Assembly (NCBI GenBank): GCA_947386115.1
Contig: CANDNO010000002.1
Coordinates: 10,965 to 74,964, forward strand
Reading direction: 5' to 3'
Origin: an uncultured Muribaculaceae bacterium
Lineage (GTDB): Bacteria > Bacteroidota > Bacteroidia > Bacteroidales > Muribaculaceae
Length of the DNA: 64,000 nt
Below are positions 3,179 to 63,330 of this stretch, in pieces. Every line of letters begins with the position of its first letter. The stretch's first letter is position 1. Below the pieces are notes generated by a model that did no database searches, had not been told where the DNA came from, and saw only the letters and a list, made by a program, of their open reading frames with translations. A program made the translations under genes and the position numbers.

Positions 3179-3206
3179 CCGCAAATTACGCAAATTGCGC
3201 AAATTT
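3179..3206. repeat. Array of about three 8-9-mers (CGCAAATT-like) upstream of the GxxExxY gene
   Basis: CCGCAAATTACGCAAATTGCGCAAATTT. It is the inverted counterpart of 3718-3744. Confidence 0.8.
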
Positions 3207-3279: not shown

Positions 3280-3660
3280 ATGGTAAAAGACATCGGTTTT
3301 GACATTATTGGAGCAGCGATGGAAGTTCATAGGATTTTAGGTCCGGGCTTGCTTGAATCTGCATATAAAGCGGCTCTCACAAAAGAACTTGTTTCACGAG
3401 GGCACTTTGTGGCAACGGAGGTTCCTATCGGAATAGTATATAAAGGAGAGAAACTTGATGTTGGCTATCGGGCCGATTTGATAGTAAACAACGAGGTCAT
3501 TATAGAACTGAAAGCAGTTACCGAGATCAACCCGGTTTACCACATGCAACTGCTCACATACTTGAAATTATCAGGCAAGAAATTAGGATTCCTGTTTAAT
3601 TTCAACACACCGAGCCTCGTTTACAACGAATCATATTTTAGAAAAGTAAATAATTTTTAA
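3280..3660 (+). CDS. GxxExxY protein (PD-(D/E)XK-like small protein family)
   Basis: 126 aa. The family motif is present as GPGLLESAY (G-x-x-E-x-x-Y). The DLIVNNEVIIELK strand is typical of this family. GC is visibly lower than in the flanks. Confidence 0.8.
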   Translation: MVKDIGFDIIGAAMEVHRILGPGLLESAYKAALTKELVSRGHFVATEVPIGIVYKGEKLDVGYRADLIVNNEVIIELKAVTEINPVYHMQLLTYLKLSGKKLGFLFNFNTPSLVYNESYFRKVNNF

Positions 3661-3689
3661 ATTCGCGAAATTCGCGTAATTCGCGATTC
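3660..3689. repeat. Three tandem 8-mers (AATTCGCG-like) immediately after the GxxExxY stop
   Basis: AATTCGCGAAATTCGCGTAATTCGCGATTC. Confidence 0.8.
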
Positions 3690-3717: not shown

Positions 3718-3744
3718 AATTTGCGTAATTTGCGAAATTTGCGG
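3718..3744. repeat. Array of about three 8-9-mers (AATTTGCG-like), inverted relative to 3179-3206
   Basis: AATTTGCGTAATTTGCGAAATTTGCGG. Its reverse complement, CCGCAAATTTCGCAAATTACGCAAATT, closely matches the upstream array. Confidence 0.8.
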
Positions 3745-10902: not shown

Positions 10903-12534
10903 ATGAAACTACAATATTTTATATATACAGCATTCCTTGGTATTGGTGCAGCAGCCCTTTCGTCATGTGAAGATGACATGACCAAAGATCTACGTTCAGA
11001 TGCAGCCATCGAACCCTACGGATTTACCGTAGAATCGCCAACAATCTATGACGAAGAAGGAAAAATTAAGCGTCAAAGCAAGGTTTTCAAGGTTAAACCT
11101 TCGACCGAAAACGGTAATGTATTCAACATTCGCATCAGCCCGTTCCTTGATGCGAACGATTACCTTACCAACGCTAAGCCCTCCTTCAACCTCTCGATGG
11201 GTGCAACCGTAACACCCTCTATGACCGAGCCCCAGGACTTCAGCAACCTCGATGCACCGGTTGAATACACCGTAACATCAGGTGACGGAAAGAAAGTCGA
11301 AAAGTTCTACGTGAGCTGGACCGAGAGTGAGCTCAAGCCCTACGGTGAAGGCATGGGCGACGGCGAGCAGAGCGCTTACAAGACCTACGTTGAACTTGGC
11401 TATCCCGGCACATACGCCAAATGGCCTCAGGACGATAACCTCAACACATCTTATGGTGACCTTATGGGCTTCCCCGCCTTCTGTGGCAAGGACAAGATTG
11501 TTATATTCTCTCGTCGCTTCGCCTGGGGTGATAACGGTGATGCCGGTGCAAAATATGCAATGCAGCCAAATGACGCCCACGCCTTTAAAGTATTTGATGT
11601 AGCTACTTTAAATCCGGCCGGATCACTCAATCTTGGCAGCATTTCTCCGGGCGACGTAGTTGCCATAACATCCGACTGGCTTGGAAATATGGTAGCGTCG
11701 GTGGGTCGTAAAGCTTCCGGCAAGACCGATTTCTACTATTGGACATCACCCGAGGAGGAACCCATTCATGTAGGTACCGCCGATGTAACTACCGATATAA
11801 GCGCCAACTCTACCGATGGCGGATGCTATATCAACGTAGCCGGAGACATTACAACAAATGCAGTCATTGCCACATCGGCACCACGCACAAACAAGGGTCA
11901 GCACTACAAGTTTAATGCCTACCGCGGTAAACTCGAACCTGAATACACCATCATCGAGACCGGACGCAGCGAGCTCGATAAGAATCAGTTCCAGATGATA
12001 TCATACTTCGGCACCTATGAGAATGACCCGTATCTTGTAGGCGACTGCTCGGCCAACGGCAGCGAAGACAACGGTCAGATTCATATCTACCTCAACAACC
12101 CCGACGGATCGAACCGCGGTGAGGCCGACTACCACATGCTCGGGTACAACGGCTATATGCACGATGACGGCGAGCAATGGTGGTCACGCTCCGGCAAATG
12201 GCTCTCTCGCAATGGCGGACGACGTCCTACTGTACACGCAATGGTTCTTAACGGCAAACCATACTCTTATGCCACAACCGGAACCGACTGGCGCAACCGC
12301 GGAGTAATGTTCGATCAGGAACTCACTGAGGTAATTCCCGGATATCCCGCATTCGGATACGGACTCTGCACGAAAGAGAAGAATCCCAACAAGAATGAAG
12401 CCGGCATGTGGATAGGCGATTCATTCGGCTGTATGGCCGACTGGTACTTCGACGACGAGACACAAGAAGGTTACGTCGCTGTATGGTCCGATCGCTTCGG
12501 TCTGAACATGTTCTTCATCACCTGCTACGAGTAA
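10903..12534 (+). CDS. Lipoprotein of unknown function, candidate surface glycan-binding protein (PUL 1)
   Basis: 543 aa with a lipobox (AALSSC) and an Ig-like N-terminal module ending ..VEYTVTSGDGKKVEKFYVSW. I see no recognisable catalytic motif. Confidence 0.6.
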   Translation: MKLQYFIYTAFLGIGAAALSSCEDDMTKDLRSDAAIEPYGFTVESPTIYDEEGKIKRQSKVFKVKPSTENGNVFNIRISPFLDANDYLTNAKPSFNLSMGATVTPSMTEPQDFSNLDAPVEYTVTSGDGKKVEKFYVSWTESELKPYGEGMGDGEQSAYKTYVELGYPGTYAKWPQDDNLNTSYGDLMGFPAFCGKDKIVIFSRRFAWGDNGDAGAKYAMQPNDAHAFKVFDVATLNPAGSLNLGSISPGDVVAITSDWLGNMVASVGRKASGKTDFYYWTSPEEEPIHVGTADVTTDISANSTDGGCYINVAGDITTNAVIATSAPRTNKGQHYKFNAYRGKLEPEYTIIETGRSELDKNQFQMISYFGTYENDPYLVGDCSANGSEDNGQIHIYLNNPDGSNRGEADYHMLGYNGYMHDDGEQWWSRSGKWLSRNGGRRPTVHAMVLNGKPYSYATTGTDWRNRGVMFDQELTEVIPGYPAFGYGLCTKEKNPNKNEAGMWIGDSFGCMADWYFDDETQEGYVAVWSDRFGLNMFFITCYE

Positions 12535-12824: not shown

Positions 12825-12931
12825 CGTAGGGACATGCCTTTGGCATGTTTATAATATCAACCGATAATCTAATAAATGATTTTGTTGACAATCAGCAACT
12901 TGAGTAAACATGCCGAAGGCATGTCCCTACG
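12825..12931. repeat. Inverted doublet of GTAG-plus-hairpin units (REPIN-like)
   Basis: The left arm is CGTAGGGACATGCCTTTGGCATGTTTA (12825-12851). The right arm is TAAACATGCCGAAGGCATGTCCCTACG (12905-12931). The arms are 27 bp with 1 mismatch, and each contains its own 7-bp hairpin. The spacer is 53 bp and AT-rich. Confidence 0.85.
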
Positions 12932-12951: not shown

Positions 12952-15309
12952 TTACTCGGGCTTGACGAGGCGGACGTGGTAGACGCCGCCGGCGATGTTG
13001 CCTTTCTCGCTCACAAATTTCACGTTGATGTGCTCTTTACCCTCGAGCAGGTGTGAGGGTATCTTGTACTCGACGTCGACAAACTCCTCGCTGTTCCATC
13101 GGCCAGATACATCCTCGTCGGCAAGCAGGATGTCATCGACAAGGATCGAGAATTTGCGGCGTCCGTTCTCGTTGCCCCAGTAGCTCACTCGCAGGGCAAG
13201 ATCGGTCTCGGAGCATGGTTTCATACGGTAGGCAAAGAATCCGCCGTCGTGGGCGTCACGCCAGGCCTTGCCGAAGTTGACACCGCGGTTGGAATGCTCG
13301 GTGGTCATGAAGTGGTCGGCCTCGGGCTGCTGCTCGCCGGTATTAACGGCATCGACGGTGCGGCGGTCGAGGGCAAGAAGGGCTTCCTCGGCGGCGCGCT
13401 CACGTTCCAGATATGCCTGATACTCGGGCTGTGTCATCGACAGCCAGTACATCATGTAGCGGCAGTCGTGGAGACGTGCGAAGGGTTTGAGCGTGATCTC
13501 CTGCGACGGATCGCTCGTGATGCCCGACACCTTGTAAGTGAGTCCCTCGCCATCAACAGACTTGGCCGAGCGCAGACGCTCCAGAATCTCACTGCGTTCT
13601 CCCACGAGTATGGGTGTATCAAACACCGACACAAGCTCTCCGCCGGCTACATGGGCCCAGCGGCTGTCGTCGGCCACGAGTCCCGTGAGGCCCTCGGTGC
13701 TGTAAGAGGCTCCGAGCACTATGGGGCCTTTGACTATCGAGACATATTCGGGACAGTTGGGGAGCTCCTCGAGCCTCATCTCCATGGGGAGCGTAACCTC
13801 GACAACATCGCCGTTTTTCCACTTGCGGTCGATGGCGACATACGAGCCGGGGGTACCCTCAAACTTGAAATTCTTACCGTTGATCATGACCGTCATGTCA
13901 CTGCACCATCCGGGATAGCGAAGCATCATGGGGAAACGGCGCGACTTGCGCGTGTTGACGGTGAACCGCGCGGTCTCGCTGTCGGGGAACGAGGTTTCCT
14001 GAGTCACCGTAACACCCTTGTCTTTCCAGTCGAGACGCGATGCGATAAAGAGGTTCACATAGAGCGAGTCGGCAGCATGGGTGTATATAAACTGGCCATA
14101 CTTGCCGTGATTTTCCATGCCTGTACCCACGCAACACCACATGCCGGCATTGGGCCGGGAGTAGACGCGGTAATGTCCCGGGCGGGCCGATGTAAAGTAG
14201 ACATAGCCGCCATGGCCGGGGTGCTGTGACGAAAGGATGTGGTTGTAAAGAGCGCGCTCATAGAAATCGGACAGGGCGGCCGAAGGGGTCATACGGAACA
14301 AGCCCTCGGTGAGTTTGAGCATATTGTTGGTATTGCATGTCTCGGGGCCCTCGCGGTCGGTGACATAGCTGCGGCAATCGTCCTTCGAGGCGAAGTGCTC
14401 GCGACGGCTGTTGCCGCCTATCGACAGCGAGCGTGTATCGACCACCGTGTGCCAGAAGAAACGCGCCGCACGGTCATACTCCTCACCGCCGCCAAGCTCG
14501 GCAATGCGCTGGTAGCCCACTACCTTTGGCACCTGAGTGTTGGCATGCTTGTTGTCGAGATTGTCGACACCCGCCACCATGCTGTCGAGCAGCCAGTGGT
14601 GGGAAAAACGGCGTGCCGCATCGAGATACTTGCTGTCGCCGGTGATGGCGTAGGCATCGGCCAGCACTTCGTCCATGCCGCCAAACTCGTTGTCGAGCAT
14701 ACTTTCCATCGCCTTGTCGTCGATGTTGGCAATGAGATCGACAGCCCAGTCACAGAACAAGACGAACATGTCGCGTGCCCGGGTGTTGCCCGTATAGACC
14801 CACGCGTCGCGCAGGCCGGCATAGGTCTTGTGAACATTATACCAGGGCACCCAATATTTCCATATCAAGTCGACTTTGCCCTGTTTCAATTCCTTCCACA
14901 GGGGAGCGCCGCCGGGAACTCCGCCCACATAACCGTCACCGTTGGCATCCTGACACTTTTTAAGCTCGGCAATCATGTAGTCCATGCGCTCCTTCAGTGC
15001 TTTATTGCCGGTAGCGGCATAGTGGATGGCGAGGGCCGACAGATAGTGGCCGCCTATGTGGCCGTCGAGACCGTCCCAGCAAGGGAAACTCTCGGCTTTG
15101 GGCTCAAGGCCGGCCTCTTTGAAGTAGGGAGCAAGCAGGCGATCGGTGTCATACTGCAGCAGCACGTCGACATTAAGGTCGAGAGCATGCTTGAACGGAC
15201 CGTCGAGCAGCTGTACATCGCCCAGGGAAAATTCGTTGTCATACAGGCGCTCCTGAGCCACAGCTCCGAGCGACACCATAAGGATAATAAGTGAAAAGAT
15301 ACGATTCAT
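12952..15309 (-). CDS. GH127/GH146-family beta-L-arabinofuranosidase-like enzyme (DUF1680)
   Basis: 785 aa with a signal peptide. GHYLSALA is present. The E-x-C (PETCNT) and CC (MWCCVGTGMENH) motifs correspond to the Glu/Cys3 zinc site and cysteine nucleophile known for GH127. Confidence 0.75.
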   Translation of the reverse strand: MNRIFSLIILMVSLGAVAQERLYDNEFSLGDVQLLDGPFKHALDLNVDVLLQYDTDRLLAPYFKEAGLEPKAESFPCWDGLDGHIGGHYLSALAIHYAATGNKALKERMDYMIAELKKCQDANGDGYVGGVPGGAPLWKELKQGKVDLIWKYWVPWYNVHKTYAGLRDAWVYTGNTRARDMFVLFCDWAVDLIANIDDKAMESMLDNEFGGMDEVLADAYAITGDSKYLDAARRFSHHWLLDSMVAGVDNLDNKHANTQVPKVVGYQRIAELGGGEEYDRAARFFWHTVVDTRSLSIGGNSRREHFASKDDCRSYVTDREGPETCNTNNMLKLTEGLFRMTPSAALSDFYERALYNHILSSQHPGHGGYVYFTSARPGHYRVYSRPNAGMWCCVGTGMENHGKYGQFIYTHAADSLYVNLFIASRLDWKDKGVTVTQETSFPDSETARFTVNTRKSRRFPMMLRYPGWCSDMTVMINGKNFKFEGTPGSYVAIDRKWKNGDVVEVTLPMEMRLEELPNCPEYVSIVKGPIVLGASYSTEGLTGLVADDSRWAHVAGGELVSVFDTPILVGERSEILERLRSAKSVDGEGLTYKVSGITSDPSQEITLKPFARLHDCRYMMYWLSMTQPEYQAYLERERAAEEALLALDRRTVDAVNTGEQQPEADHFMTTEHSNRGVNFGKAWRDAHDGGFFAYRMKPCSETDLALRVSYWGNENGRRKFSILVDDILLADEDVSGRWNSEEFVDVEYKIPSHLLEGKEHINVKFVSEKGNIAGGVYHVRLVKPE

Positions 15310-53180: not shown

Positions 53181-53187
53181 CCCCGCA

Positions 53188-53396
53188 CCTTGAACCTTAT
53201 TCAACGCGGCACCCCGCCACCAACAATCAGGATGCCTCGCACCTTGTACCTCGTGCCTTGAACCTTATTCAACGCGGTACCCCGCGTTCCTACAATCAGG
53301 ATGCCTCGTACCTTGTACCTCGAGCCTAGTACCTTTTTTGTCTCCGGCCGGCGCGATTCATCGCGCCAAGTACAGCCTATCAATCAATATATTGAG
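53188..53396 (+). repeat. Composite intergenic repeat: a 68-bp unit in tandem x2 (53188-53255, 53256-53323), then a GC hairpin and the ATCAATATATTG palindrome
   Basis: The unit is CCTTGAACCTTATTCAACGCGG.ACCCCGC...ACAATCAGGATGCCTCG.ACCTTGTACCTCG. It is followed by TACCTTTTTTGTCTCCGGCCGGCGCGATTCATCGCGCC. The stretch 53256-53396 is homologous to 56515-56675. Confidence 0.85.
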
Positions 53397-53484
53397 CATC
53401 AATTTACGATAACGCGGCACGCCGCGTCCAAACAATTAGCGATATCACGTCTAAACCGATATTGTATATTACGACATTTTGACG

Positions 53485-53492
53485 TATATTTG
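53485..53492 (+). promoter_or_regulatory. -7 box (TATATTTG) for the 53523 gene
   Basis: Matches TAnnTTTG, 31 nt upstream of ATG 53523. Confidence 0.45.
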
Positions 53493-53522
53493 TGCGATTG
53501 TTTTACAAATTACTACATTTTT

Positions 53523-54971
53523 ATGAGAATTCATCAAATGATGCTCGCAGCCGCCATGTGTTTTGTTCCAGGCTGGCAGGCTGCCGCCCAATGGCAGACA
53601 ATAGGTACAGGCGTCTATCACGAAGATTTAATTCCCGATTTTGACGGGACTTGCGAACGTGGCATGAAGTGGAATGTCACTATCGAAGAGAACACCGAGA
53701 CACCCGGACTATACCGTTTCGTTCCATACCACAAATATAGCGGCATCGCGGAGTGGATTACCGCGTCAGATGACGTGACATGCATGATTATTCATGCCGA
53801 GAATCCCGACAAGGTATGGATGGAAGATTTCAAGCCCTACCCCGAGTATGAGATGTTCTGGTTTACCCATATGGTGCCGGAAAGCGGCTGGGAAGCCGAA
53901 CCGGCCGGATACGGAATACTTTCTGAAGGAGTTATTTCCTTTCCCGCCAGCTGCATGGCGTTCGTCAACATCTATGACGAGAATCAGCAATGGTTCGCGA
54001 CAAACACCAGCGGTTCTTTTAAAATAGAACTTCCCGGTGGTGAAAGCTACGAAGATTACAGCCTGTTTCTTGAGAATCCCTACTGTGGTGCCGACAATAG
54101 TGTGCCCGTAACCATAACATGTGGCAACTCAACAGCTTCAATGAAGTATGCCATCTATAAAGGTCCGAAAGAAGCCGACGCGCAACTTGCGGCTGACATT
54201 GCTGCCAACGGCACATTGATTGAAAAAGGAGAACAGTCGATAAAGTGTCCGGCTCACGGTATGTACACGCTCGTTGTCGTCACGCTCGACAACAACGGCA
54301 ACCTTAAAGAATATAAGAAAACCGAGATATACGGACTGTATGACAATGACGATGATTGGAAATCACTCGGAAAGACGACCTATCACGAAGCGATCATTGC
54401 CGAGCACTATGAATATGACTACACTGACCTTCAGGTAGAAATACAGGAAAACATCCATACTCCCGGTTATTATCGACTCGTCAATCCCTACGCAGAGTAT
54501 GAGTACAATTACATTGAGCGTGTAGACGGGCATAACCACTACATGTATATCCATGCCGAAAATCCTAAAGCCGTGTGGATTGAAAACTCACCCTTAGGTG
54601 CCGATTTCGGCTATGGCGACGGCCGTATATCATCGGTAGTTGCACAAGCTATTGAAAACGGATTTACCCTCCAGGAAGCACTTGACAGCGGTCTCGAAGT
54701 AGGCTTCATAAACAATGAAAACGCAATCGTGTTCCCCGAATGGGGCATCAAATATGCCGATCGTGATTACTTCGATGGCGAATGGTATTCGTCGGGCCTT
54801 GGTTTTAAACTTCAATTGCCGGATAACGCAGGAATAGATTCCATCATATCTCAAGACGACAACACTCCCGTCCAATACTACAACATGCAGGGAATCAAGC
54901 TCAACAGCAAGCCCTCGGGCATCATGTACATCGAGAAACACGGCTCGACGGTAACAAAACACATCAATTAA
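53523..54971 (+). CDS. Secreted protein of unknown function with an internally duplicated domain and a T9SS C-terminal sorting domain
   Basis: SPI signal peptide (MRIHQMMLAAAMCFVPGWQAAAQ). Two paralogous modules are present: W.T.G.G.YHEDLI..IEENTETPGLYRFV..IIHAENPDKVWMEDF and WKSLGKTTYHEAII..IQENIHTPGYYRLV..YIHAENPKAVWIENS. The C-terminus is VQYYNMQGIKLNSKPSGIMYIEKHG. The track N-terminal extension runs through the repeat and was rejected. Confidence 0.65.
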   Translation: MRIHQMMLAAAMCFVPGWQAAAQWQTIGTGVYHEDLIPDFDGTCERGMKWNVTIEENTETPGLYRFVPYHKYSGIAEWITASDDVTCMIIHAENPDKVWMEDFKPYPEYEMFWFTHMVPESGWEAEPAGYGILSEGVISFPASCMAFVNIYDENQQWFATNTSGSFKIELPGGESYEDYSLFLENPYCGADNSVPVTITCGNSTASMKYAIYKGPKEADAQLAADIAANGTLIEKGEQSIKCPAHGMYTLVVVTLDNNGNLKEYKKTEIYGLYDNDDDWKSLGKTTYHEAIIAEHYEYDYTDLQVEIQENIHTPGYYRLVNPYAEYEYNYIERVDGHNHYMYIHAENPKAVWIENSPLGADFGYGDGRISSVVAQAIENGFTLQEALDSGLEVGFINNENAIVFPEWGIKYADRDYFDGEWYSSGLGFKLQLPDNAGIDSIISQDDNTPVQYYNMQGIKLNSKPSGIMYIEKHGSTVTKHIN

Positions 54972-56289: not shown

Positions 56290-56329
56290 AAAAAATACTT
56301 AGAATTGGATTAATACTTGATTTATGTTG

Positions 56330-56337
56330 CAAATTTA
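56330..56337 (-). promoter_or_regulatory. -7 box (TAAATTTG on the minus strand) for the 56289 lipoprotein gene
   Basis: The plus strand reads CAAATTTA, 41 nt upstream of ATG 56289. Confidence 0.45.
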
Positions 56338-56454
56338 TACATTCTCACCACTCCAATCAACAAATTTTCACAAAAACCTCAAAATAAACTACAATTCATC
56401 ACCAAACTCAACAATCCGGCTAATAAAAACCATACATACAATCCACCCCGCGCC

Positions 56455-56718
56455 CCGAACCTCGTGCCCCGTGCCTTGACCTTGAACCTTGTACCTCGTG
56501 CCTTGAACCTCGTGCCTTGAACCTTATTCAACGCGGCACGCCGCGTTCCTACAATCAGGATGTCTCGTACCTTGAACCTTGTACCTCGCACCTCGCGCCT
56601 CTCCCCCGTACCTTTTTTGTCTCCGGTTGGCGCGATTTATCGCGCCGTTATGGGTTAATTATCAATATATTGCAGTTTTGCCGGGTTTACGCGGCACGCC
56701 GCGTCCCTACAATTAGGG
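56455..56718 (+). repeat. Composite intergenic repeat: period-8 array, REP-like hairpin unit, a second 8-mer stretch, a GC hairpin, the ATCAATATATTG palindrome and a second REP-like unit
   Basis: 56455-56524 holds units such as CCTCGTGC, CCTTGAAC and CCTTGTAC. 56530-56560 reads AACGCGGCACGCCGCGTTCCTACAATCAGGA. 56628-56646 reads GGCGCGATTTATCGCGCC. 56689-56718 reads ACGCGGCACGCCGCGTCCCTACAATTAGGG. Confidence 0.85.
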
Positions 56719-56785
56719 AGCTACACACCTCATACCTTGCGGGTTGAAGCTATGCTGTAAATTTGAATTATCCGATTATATTCGC

Positions 56786-56793
56786 TAAATTTG
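56786..56793 (+). promoter_or_regulatory. -7 box (TAAATTTG) for dnaX
   Basis: Matches TAnnTTTG, 22 nt upstream of ATG 56815. Confidence 0.5.
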
Positions 56794-56814
56794 CCGATAT
56801 AAGACTTATTCAAA

Positions 56815-59608: not shown

Positions 59609-59636
59609 TAACGGATTCCGACACCTCTTTCGTTCT

Positions 59637-59935
59637 GTTAGGCGCGAAGCATCGCGCCATCTGCATTTTGCATATCATCCCAAGGTCCACGCGGCACGCC
59701 GCGTCCCTACAATCAGGACGTCCCGAACCCCGTACCTTGAACCTCGAACCTCGTACCCCGAACCTTGAACCTTGGACCTTGAACCTAAAAAGGGCCTCGT
59801 ACCTTGGGCCTTATTCCACGCGGCACGCCGCGTCCCTACAATTAGGACGCCTCGTACCCCGCACCTCGTACCTCGAACCTCGAACCTCGAATCTCGAACC
59901 TCGAACCTAAAAAGAGCCTCGTCCCTACAATTTTT
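59637..59935 (+). repeat. Composite intergenic repeat: a GC hairpin, then two tandem units of about 130 bp, each a REP-like hairpin plus a period-8 array plus GAACCTAAAAAGRGCCTCGT
   Basis: 59641-59658 reads GGCGCGAAGCATCGCGCC. The REP-like units are at 59688-59718 and 59817-59847 (CACGCGGCACGCCGCGTCCCTACAATYAGGA). A truncated copy GTCCCTACAATT is at 59921-59932. The 8-mer arrays are at 59719-59786 and 59848-59907 (CCTCGAAC x5). Confidence 0.85.
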
Positions 59936-59940
59936 GACTG

Positions 59941-63021: not shown

Positions 63022-63330
63022 TTACTTTTGGGTCACAACGACCTTGTCACGGGGACTGAGCGACGGGATGTCGATGTCGTAGGGCAGTCCCTCGGGCAAC
63101 GCGAAACGGTACTCGTAGCTGCCGTCGTCGCGCAGTTTCCACGATGACGTGACCGTGCCGTGGGGTGTCTCGGTGCGGGCCGTGGCATACTCTATGCGCT
63201 TCTGCCCTGTCTTGGCAAGGTAAGGCGTCACATCGACCTCACGGCACATCACCTCGTGGCGATAGTCGGTCCAGCCGGGATTCAGCTCGCCCATCTCCAC
63301 CCGCCACCACAGCAACAACAAACGCAACAA
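63022..63330 (-). pseudogene. Probable remnant of an alpha-L-rhamnosidase-like (GH78-type) gene
   Basis: The 102-aa ORF joins an N-domain-like piece (LNPGWTDYRHEVMCREVDVTPYL, cf. PgwtdY..v.Y..yDVT..L) directly to a C-terminal-like piece (TPHGTVTSSWKL...FALPEGLPYDIDIP). There is no signal peptide and no catalytic (alpha/alpha)6 region. Confidence 0.35.

Follow-up and report, generated by a model that had tools for sequence, protein, structure and literature searches.

GTAG-headed REP elements in composite intergenic arrays of an uncultured Muribaculaceae bacterium and their probable RAYT partners

Introduction

Short, near-identical palindromic units lie between the genes of an uncultured gut bacterium of the Muribaculaceae, and the question raised by this locus is whether they are repetitive extragenic palindromic (REP) elements, the DNA partners of REP-associated tyrosine transposases (RAYTs), or repeats of some other origin. 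The DNA analyzed, referred to here as the window, is 64 kb long and comprises positions 10965–74964 of a 76.9-kb metagenomic contig from a Muribaculaceae metagenome-assembled genome (MAG) lineage. An earlier reading made from the letters of the window (the sequence-only reading) had proposed a REP-like, RAYT-type family, and this interpretation is supported by the grammar of the units, their exclusion from open reading frames (ORFs), the flanked RAYT genes of relatives, and the comparison of syntenic sites. Together with the excess of the units over chance, the invasion of RAYT genes by the same core in relatives, and the lineage-specific gain of the arrays, these observations confirm a REP family. 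With a probability of about 0.8, the units are GTAG REPs that partner RAYTs of subclass 2.4, or group 4, which are HUH transposases of the Y1 type, and the family has spread among gut and rumen Bacteroidales. The system is of a known type rather than a new kind; its head-to-tail, heptamer-embedded arrangement is unusual.

REP Units in Three Intergenic Regions

On the plus strand, a family-1 unit consists of a 16-nucleotide (nt) hairpin, ACGCGG-NNNN-CCGCGT, followed by (T/C)CCTACAAT. Read on the minus strand, it becomes ATTGTAGG(G/A)ACGCGGCGTGCCGCGT, in which GTAG sits two bases 5′ of a GC stem of 6–7 bp; without its flanks, the minus-strand unit is TCCTAATTGTAGGGACGCGGCGTGCCGCGTGGAAT, and its search-pattern form is GTAGG[GA]ACGCGGNNNNCCGCG. 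Five units are intact and read ATTGTAGG(G/A)-ACGCGG-CGTG-CCGCGT, and three others are degenerate or truncated. The intact units are predicted to fold, as single-stranded DNA (ssDNA), with energies of −7 to −10 kcal/mol. A motif scan with ATTGTAGGRACGCGG, allowing up to two mismatches, returned seven matches in the window versus 0.22 expected, and none of 100 shuffles reached seven; the proposed grammar, a GTAG immediately 5′ of a palindrome on the minus strand, is thus present in the intact units far above chance. The whole 76.9-kb contig holds eight family-1 copies, all inside 7 kb. In hairpin and motif scans of the window, every family-1 copy carries GTAG on the minus strand, and the single orientation that had been claimed for them holds. 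All copies listed by the sequence-only reading were found on re-reading the sequence, and one degenerate copy (53412–53436), which it had overlooked, was added. The units, with the evidence for each, are as follows:

53204–53227, minus strand: REP unit A1, degenerate (stem ACGCGGCACCCCGCCA, head CCAACAAT); weak fold, −4.7 kcal/mol
53272–53296, minus strand: REP unit A2, ATTGTAGGAACGCGGGGTACCGCGT on the minus strand, with a 7-bp stem; motif, hairpin, and fold
53412–53436, minus strand: REP unit A3, whose hairpin is perfect and whose head is degenerate (CCAAACAAT; also given as ATTGTTTGG); hairpin scan
56531–56555, minus strand: REP unit B1 (ATTGTAGGAACGCGGCGTGCCGCGT); motif, hairpin, and fold
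56689–56713, minus strand: REP unit B2 (ATTGTAGGGACGCGGCGTGCCGCGT), at the right end of array B, upstream of the dnaX promoter-like TAAATTTG; motif, hairpin, and fold
59689–59713, minus strand: REP unit C1; motif, hairpin, and fold
59818–59842, minus strand: REP unit C2; motif, hairpin, and fold
59920–59931, minus strand: hairpin-less REP remnant (CGTCCCTACAAT), located 9 nt before the start codon of ald; head motif

The ORF list, like the public gene calls for the identical contig, confines the copies to three intergenic regions, as the claim that they occur only between genes had it. Region A (53181–53537) extends from the end of a 4HBT thioesterase gene (53180) to the start of an unknown gene (53538), and region B (56290–56814) separates a divergent unknown gene (56289) from dnaX (56815). 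Region C (59609–59940) lies between aroK (59608) and ald, a gene of the alanine dehydrogenase (AlaDH) family (59941). The remnant in front of ald, with its junctions between …CCTCGT and CCCTACAAT, is consistent in sequence with a hairpin deletion between two CGT triplets. The sequence that follows the head (CCCTACAAT-TAGGG or CAGGA; 56700–56713, 59828–59847, and other units) is partly complementary to the head, and a small second ssDNA hairpin over it could, according to fold prediction, sequester GTAG.

Composite Arrays with Heptamers and a Second Hairpin

The units had been described as isolated elements of about 30 nt; they are real, but they form parts of larger composite tandem arrays. 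Tandem Repeats Finder detected 7-nt tandem repeats, GNNCCTY on the plus strand, on both sides of the units, and a hairpin scan detected a second hairpin, GGCGCGA-N4-TCGCGCC, with one copy per region and none in the rest of the window:

53241–53334, no strand assigned: 7-nt repeats on either side of REP A2; Tandem Repeats Finder
56446–56525 and 56564–56601, no strand assigned: 7-nt repeats flanking REP B1; Tandem Repeats Finder
59724–59786 and 59850–59908, no strand assigned: 7-nt repeats between the REP units of array C; Tandem Repeats Finder
53350–53367, no strand assigned: second hairpin GGCGCGA-TTCA-TCGCGCC, a module of array A; hairpin scan and fold
56629–56646, no strand assigned: second hairpin, a module of array B; hairpin scan
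59641–59658, no strand assigned: second hairpin, at the left end of array C; hairpin scan

The REP and its heptamers together make up a 69-nt higher-order repeat of 2.2 copies in array A (53188–53335; Tandem Repeats Finder), and in array C a REP and heptamer unit of about 129 nt is duplicated at 83% identity, the period spanning 59686–59926. Arrays A and B are collinear over about 260 nt, with one 86-nt stretch that is 92% identical, and share the module order of heptamers, TTCA, REP, CAGGATG, heptamers, the TTTTTTGTCTCCGG motif, which precedes the second hairpin in both, the second hairpin itself, an AT-rich stretch with TATCAATATATTG, REP, and TAG. The right end of all three arrays is a GTAG head (…CC[CA][TA]ACAATT). 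These shared modules and right ends indicate that the three separate intergenic sites carry the same composite, and not only the same 30-mer.

The second hairpin was absent from all compared loci other than those carrying the window's own sequence. Its interpretation as a diverged inverted REP was rejected, as no convincing alignment was obtained by eye and no copies occur at other loci. A clustered regularly interspaced short palindromic repeat (CRISPR) array was also rejected, given that the spacers are heptamer repeats, the spacing is irregular, each locus holds only two or three units, and there is no cas-like gene among the called neighbors.

The Same Core in Other Genomes

The invariant core of the unit is the 22-mer GTAGGGACGCGGCGTGCCGCGT. 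In a collection of 596 Gb with one genome per species, the 24-nt pattern CGCGGNNNNCCGCGTNCCTACAAT was found in 63 stretches, 49 of them from Bacteroidales MAGs, versus about four expected by our own arithmetic. The core is thus far above chance in the window and recurs at about 49 Bacteroidales loci of the collection. The host MAGs are assigned to Muribaculaceae, Duncaniella, Prevotellaceae, ‘Porphyromonadaceae’ UBA lineages, and unclassified Bacteroidales, and in these other MAGs at least 3–10 loci each fit the strict pattern, the counts being minimal since a match had to include the variable AAT flank. The intergenic restriction extends beyond the window: the 49 Bacteroidales loci contain 93 cores, of which 11 fall within an ORF of 120 amino acids (aa) or more, versus 85% of random 22-mers.

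Elsewhere, the core mostly occurs as an inverted doublet of 70–210 bp with GTAG outermost (ATTGTAGGGACGCGGCGTGCCGCGT … ACGCGGCACGCCGCGTCCCTACAAT), and about 30 such family-1 doublets were seen. The inverted repeat of the doublets often continues inward, which is the architecture of REP doublets forming hairpins (REPINs).

Outside the Bacteroidales, at least 10 head-to-tail copies of a 121–140-nt unit, with ATTGTAGGGACGCGGCCTGCCGCGTCCC and further GTAG-type hairpins, were observed in L062 (6050–7250) and L028 (Aggregatilineales chromosome CP146238.1). The near-identical REP stem in Chloroflexota suggests, at the level of sequence, cross-phylum spread of this RAYT/REP type.

RAYT Genes Flanked and Invaded by the Core in Relatives

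The sequence-only reading had called for a Y1 HUH transposase gene flanked by inverted copies, and such genes were found in related genomes (L055 and L075–L082), although none lies on the window's contig. In a ‘Porphyromonadaceae’ UBA4262 genome (L055, 136–654), a 173-codon gene with the motifs VVMPNHFHAI, WQTRFHDH, and DYIRHNVSNW lies between inverted copies of the core; this copy contains one in-frame TGA (541–543), at a position where the intact P0001 has a Gly codon. P0001 (L081/L082) is 97% identical to the L055 gene, encodes an intact protein of 180 aa, and is flanked by the inverted, identical 22-nt core. P0002, present in six samples (L075–L080), is 70% identical to the L055 gene, also intact, and likewise flanked by the inverted, identical core. 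Sister REPs, which keep the GTAGGGAC head and have other stems or loops, flank two further genes: a paralogue located 1.4 kb from the first gene in L055, and a gene from a MAG labelled Clostridiales (L021). The REPs upstream of the L055 gene at 136–654 read GTAC, not GTAG, and are reiterated at a 58-nt period in L082.

The relationship of these proteins to RAYTs has been traced through several profiles. They match the NCBIfam model NF047646 (REP_Tyr_transpos, ‘REP-associated tyrosine transposase’) with E values of 2e-12 to 2e-15 (47–57 bits). For Pfam Y1_Tnp, the L055 paralogue and the L021 gene are borderline, at 24.2 and 21.9 bits against a cut-off of 23 bits, and the L055 136–654 protein, one of three proteins tested, has no Pfam match. 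A family profile built from 35 sequences finds E. coli TnpA_REP (4ER8) as its best PDB match (E 5e-9), with the HUH and WQ…YIxxN segments aligned, versus E values of 0.19 or worse (about 0.2–0.35) for chains of the IS200/IS608 type. PNH-H, WQ-R, and Y...N are invariant in the 35 sequences, and the HUH motif is of the NHFH type; a motif comparison gives the Y motif as YIxNN[V/I] for the Bacteroidales clade and as YIQNNP for L021. Several homologues have been named ‘REP element-mobilizing transposase RayT’ by the Joint Genome Institute. The motif set and host range of the relatives' RAYTs fit those of subclass 2.4, that is, group 4, as far as sequence comparison can tell.

The core has also entered the genes themselves. 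GTAGGGACGCGGCGTGCCGCGTCC translates to VGTRRAAS and its complement to DAARRVP, and in-frame translations of the core, VGT[RL]RA[AV]S and/or AAR.VPT (VGTRRAAS, DAARRVPT), are found in 34 of 120 RAYT homologues. REP copies in frame within the RAYT gene have been called unique to subclass 2.4 (Quentin et al. 2018, PMC6006769). Among 80 more distant metagenomic RAYT loci, 36 have GTAG-headed perfect GC hairpins at most 400 nt away, versus 2.0 occurrences expected from shuffles; the stems vary there by paired changes, and GTAG(A/G)G is kept.

Two further homologues deserve mention. P0018 (L088, 4001–4651) is a RAYT homologue with in-frame REP inserts that lies between N6_N4_Mtase methylase and ResIII/RE_endonuc genes, in what resembles a type III restriction-modification operon, an arrangement conserved in many samples. 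As a candidate for the source organism's own RAYT, P0018 (28 contigs) was rejected, since its contigs come from other samples and the gene lies inside that operon. In the relative with 87% AlaDH identity (L085, 2782–3786), a 334-aa gene with faint Y1_Tnp similarity (E 2e-8 with the family hidden Markov model, HMM) directly follows rnhA, at a position occupied in the window by an NAPRTase gene; the surroundings of the 334-aa gene showed no GTAG hairpins.

Gain and Change of the Arrays among Relatives

The aroK–ald spacer can be followed through relatives of decreasing AlaDH identity:

window: 332 nt, with the REP/heptamer array
relative with 97% aa and 89% nt identity in AlaDH (L177–L180): a REP, about 22 heptamers, and a REP whose head has decayed, 20 nt ahead of the ATG
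92% AlaDH relative (L173): 56 nt, without REP
87% AlaDH relative (L085): 38 nt, without REP
83% AlaDH relative (L084): 30 nt, without REP
83% AlaDH relative (L083): 4-nt overlap of the genes, without REP

In the 97% relative, three of the four short-read contigs begin inside the array and the fourth begins at its first REP. The region upstream of dnaX measures 525 nt in the window; in L173, L083, and L084 it is free of REPs and 169–236 nt long. The promoter-like box CGCTAAATTTGCCG, which lies close upstream of dnaX and downstream of array B, is kept in L083 and nearly so in L173 (TGCTAAATTTGCCG); L084 retains only its TAAATTTG core. The syntenic comparison, which had been suggested as a check, thus revealed presence/absence and structural polymorphism. 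Since the syntenic sites of the 83–92% relatives are free of REPs, the aligned sequences indicate that the arrays were acquired after the split from the 92% AlaDH lineage and that the repeat number has changed since.

A Mechanism and Its Alternatives

By analogy with the systems of E. coli, Stenotrophomonas, and Marinomonas, the minus strand of ssDNA would fold into the 6–7 bp GC hairpin, and both this hairpin and the unpaired GTAG(GG) at its 5′ foot would be bound by a RAYT. The enzyme's catalytic tyrosine (YIxxN) would then cut nearby, and the 3′-OH would be rejoined elsewhere, copying or moving REP-bounded segments. Once the lineage had separated from the 92% AlaDH relatives, a composite of REP, 7-nt tract, and second hairpin may have been seeded at three or more intergenic sites, and local tandem duplication or slippage may then have amplified and remodelled it, with an outcome of head-to-tail arrays unlike the inverted REPIN doublets of other Bacteroidales. 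As the window's contig carries no RAYT, we infer mobilization in this genome, by an enzyme acting now or formerly; the cleavage chemistry, the cleavage site at these REPs, and the origin of the heptamer tracts are likewise put forward here by analogy and as conjecture.

Several observations weigh against a RAYT-driven origin. As the sequence-only reading had noted, no cognate transposase is in view: neither tblastn nor the 35-sequence profile HMM applied to all six-frame segments (best E 0.47) found a RAYT in the 64-kb window, and the contig sequence on either side of the window, 10 kb upstream and 2 kb downstream, contains neither a RAYT nor further REPs, the gene lists of the contig being equally empty. 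The family-1 REPs could thus be orphans in their source genome, the RAYT search having covered one contig; a metagenome scan for the lineage-specific junction CGCGGNNNNCCGCGTYCCTACAATYAGGAYG gave no match. The family-1 copies of the window are head-to-tail singlets only, with none of the inverted doublets that define a REPIN, and the inverted doublet has been proposed as the replicative unit (Bertels and Rainey 2011, PMC3116915); the local multiplication of these copies may owe nothing to a transposase. The 23 same-strain contigs with an identical AlaDH are 99.95–100% identical, arrays included, and therefore give no sign of current movement and make strain polymorphism uninformative. Finally, the NF047646 scores of the Bacteroidales RAYTs are below the 80-bit equivalog cut-off, the P of the subclass 2.4 motif YIxNNP is replaced in these proteins by V or I, and a search of the literature found no biochemical test of a subclass 2.4 or group 4 RAYT.

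The alternative that survives best is a local mini- or microsatellite, that is, a variable number tandem repeat in which replication slippage or unequal recombination multiplied a hairpin unit without the help of a transposase in this genome. The head-to-tail copies in their 69-nt and roughly 129-nt higher-order repeats are what such a process would leave, as are the confinement of the three loci to 7 kb, with no further copy in the other ~70 kb of the contig, the different heptamer number in the 97% relative, and the lack of a RAYT in window and contig. However, slippage cannot put the same composite into three separate intergenic regions, nor does it account for a 22-nt core that is found unchanged in dozens of other genera, both beside and within RAYT genes. 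We regard this explanation as unlikely for the family as a whole, and slippage or recombination probably accounts for the growth of each array as part of the RAYT-based explanation.

Considerably less probable is that the arrays are host regulatory signals: intrinsic terminators, mRNA-stabilizing 3′ hairpins, protein-binding sites, or a small RNA. The hairpins have a high GC content and stable predicted folds, E. coli REPs affect mRNA stability, and array C, inside the aroK–ald junction that is a tight operon in relatives, is for that reason probably transcribed. However, a terminator scan of the window found no terminator-like site overlapping any unit or second hairpin; the stems are followed by CCCTACAAT or GGAATAAGG and not by the T run of an intrinsic terminator, so the possibility, raised earlier, that the units are ordinary terminators received no support. 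Array B is located in a divergent promoter region, with the conserved dnaX promoter-like TAAATTTG downstream of it. An Rfam scan of the window gave only tRNA at the gathering threshold and, at E up to 1, one chance-level snoRNA match and no family for the units. The loci are absent in the 83–92% AlaDH relatives, which argues that the arrays are not conserved regulatory parts of these genes. In a consensus scan of the window, no sigma-70-like promoter site coincided with the units, and boxes of the Bacteroidetes type, TAnnTTTG, were seen by eye downstream of arrays A and B.

It is very improbable that the units are ends of another mobile element, such as terminal inverted repeats of a miniature inverted-repeat transposable element (MITE) moved by a DDE transposase or target sites of the IS110/IS1111 type with an incidental link to RAYTs, for although the doublets elsewhere resemble MITEs with terminal inverted repeats of 22–25 bp and REPs are known as insertion sequence targets (Tobes and Pareja 2006, as far as cited in PMC3116915), RAYTs are the only transposases seen beside the repeats at the inspected loci, no target-site duplication was seen around the doublets in flanks read by eye, and an unpaired GTAG by a stem-loop and in-frame inserts in RAYT genes are specific REP/RAYT signatures.

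Comparison with Known Systems

In a 2013 survey of GTAG-tagged REPs, Bacteroidetes yielded none (PMC3733652), and RAYTs of subclass 2.4 and their canonical GTAG REPs were later placed in that phylum (Quentin et al. 2018, PMC6006769); this subclass equals RAYT group 4 of Bertels et al. 2017 (PMC5581495). The novelty for Bacteroidales supposed by the sequence-only reading is consequently weaker than claimed; our literature search found no description of the specific core GTAGGGACGCGGCGTGCCGCGT or of its spread through uncultured Muribaculaceae, Prevotellaceae, and other MAGs. The relatives' RAYTs resemble those of subclass 2.4, which is associated with long or ‘double-foot’ GTAG REPs, in their NH[IFV]H HUH motif, WQ, and Y-I-x-N-N, in the GTAG-headed GC hairpins that flank the RAYT gene, in modest copy numbers, and in their occurrence in Bacteroidetes, Chloroflexota (L062), and the MAG labelled Clostridiales (L021). 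They differ in that the Bacteroidales clade has V/I for the P of YIxNNP and in that the REPs of the window are head-to-tail singlets in heptamer tracts and not doublets.

With the REP and bacterial interspersed mosaic element (BIME) system of E. coli TnpA_REP (REPtron Ec, 4ER8) and the group 3 systems of Stenotrophomonas and Marinomonas, the present family shares an unpaired GTAG 5′ of an extragenic stem-loop, a RAYT gene between inverted REPs (in relatives), and, for 4ER8, profile homology (E 5e-9) and catalytic motifs. Cleavage by group 2 and group 3 RAYTs requires GTAG and takes place at a CT or CA next to the REP (Corneloup et al. 2021, PMC8266576). Unlike these systems, family 1 belongs to another phylum and RAYT subclass and has two extra conserved bases (GG or GA) between GTAG and stem; its stem is a perfect 6–7 bp, without the bulge that E. 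coli needs. The units of the window also share one orientation and have heptamer linkers, in contrast to BIMEs, in which Y and Z REPs alternate with defined linkers. Pseudomonas fluorescens REPINs (PMC3116915) offer parallels in the doublets that fold into a long hairpin, represented here by the second family at 12826–12930 and by family 1 in other Bacteroidales, and in ordered tandem clusters of REPINs, whose repeats recur along with their flanking sequence (PMC3116915). However, family 1 in the window has no doublet, its reiterated flank is itself a 7-nt microsatellite, and its copy number is apparently far below the hundreds of Pseudomonas.

Cyanobacterial small dispersed repeats (SDRs), attributed to Elhai et al. 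2008, reportedly form hairpins and often lie inside tandem heptamers. They resemble the arrays of the window in this heptamer setting. Cyanobacteria are also a main home of RAYT group 4, or subclass 2.4. A link between SDRs and RAYTs has been made only as a suggestion (Bertels and Rainey 2011, PMC3116915).

A Second REP Family and Other Features of the Window

The pair of repeats at 12.8 kb, which the sequence-only reading had listed as a variant, is an inverted doublet of a second family:

12826–12848, plus strand, and 12908–12930, minus strand: REPIN-like inverted doublet (GTAGGGACATGCC-N3-GGCATGT), between tRNA-Gln and the 3′ end of the gene 12952–15309

As ssDNA, the doublet (12826–12930) is predicted to fold into one long hairpin of −33.8 kcal/mol (z = −11.4). 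Family 2 has the same GTAGGGAC head as family 1 and another stem (ACATGCC/GGCATGT), and its core recurs in L043 as a doublet and a singlet (1082–1154, 1481–1493), in a MAG that carries family 1 too. Two REP families with a common head suggest either several RAYT paralogues or a single enzyme whose recognition depends mainly on the head.

Three arrays, each of about three 9-nt repeats (CGCAAATTA, AAATTCGCG, and AATTTGCGA), surround a PDDEXK_3-family gene (3280–3660) at 3180–3205, 3659–3686, and 3718–3743. They hold the same octamer in both orientations and, from their sequence, could be binding sites or iterons. At 63022–63330, a 102-aa C-terminal rhamnosidase remnant is followed by a UvrD-type helicase gene, and the full 792-aa rhamnosidase is present in the 97% relative (L177, 3158–5536), which points, on sequence comparison, to a deletion or rearrangement in the window's lineage. 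A replication-strand bias of the units was also considered and set aside: the GC skew in the window merely follows gene orientation, from which replication direction cannot be inferred.

REPs, Tandem Repeats, and Biological Meaning

Short tandem repeats abut family-1 REPs in several independent lineages: 7-mers in the window and the 97% relative, 11-mers in a Prevotellaceae MAG (L007), 15-mers at the P0002 RAYT locus (L075), and 7-, 9-, or 12-mers in L039, L115, L144, and L056. A naive comparison of REPs with tandem repeats gave an approximately 5-fold enrichment. REP-containing intergenic gaps are longer than REP-free ones, and with a fair control, tandem repeats were found in 15 of 107 REP-containing gaps versus 24 of 282 REP-free gaps (odds ratio 1.75, p = 0.13). 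A general association was accordingly rejected as a demonstrated rule, and the link is treated as an unproven lead. That a REP of this RAYT subclass travels with, or seeds, an abutting lineage-specific short tandem repeat is a long shot, with the odds well against it. If it were true, bacterial micro- and minisatellites would be generated by the nicking and strand transfer activity of RAYTs or by replication forks that stall at the hairpin, and the cyanobacterial SDRs in heptamer tracts would be the same phenomenon in another phylum where the subclass is common.

The general understanding of REPs is unchanged by these results. REP/RAYT systems have been studied almost wholly in Proteobacteria, and here a very conserved 22-nt core comes from gut Bacteroidales, with intact, matched RAYT genes (P0001 and P0002) available for direct in vitro work. 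For the organism itself, the arrays have lengthened intergenic regions several-fold beside core genes (dnaX and aroK–ald) since the split from the 92% AlaDH relative. They break short-read assemblies, as is seen from the contigs of the 97% relative that end inside the array, and they could serve as strain markers in Muribaculaceae.

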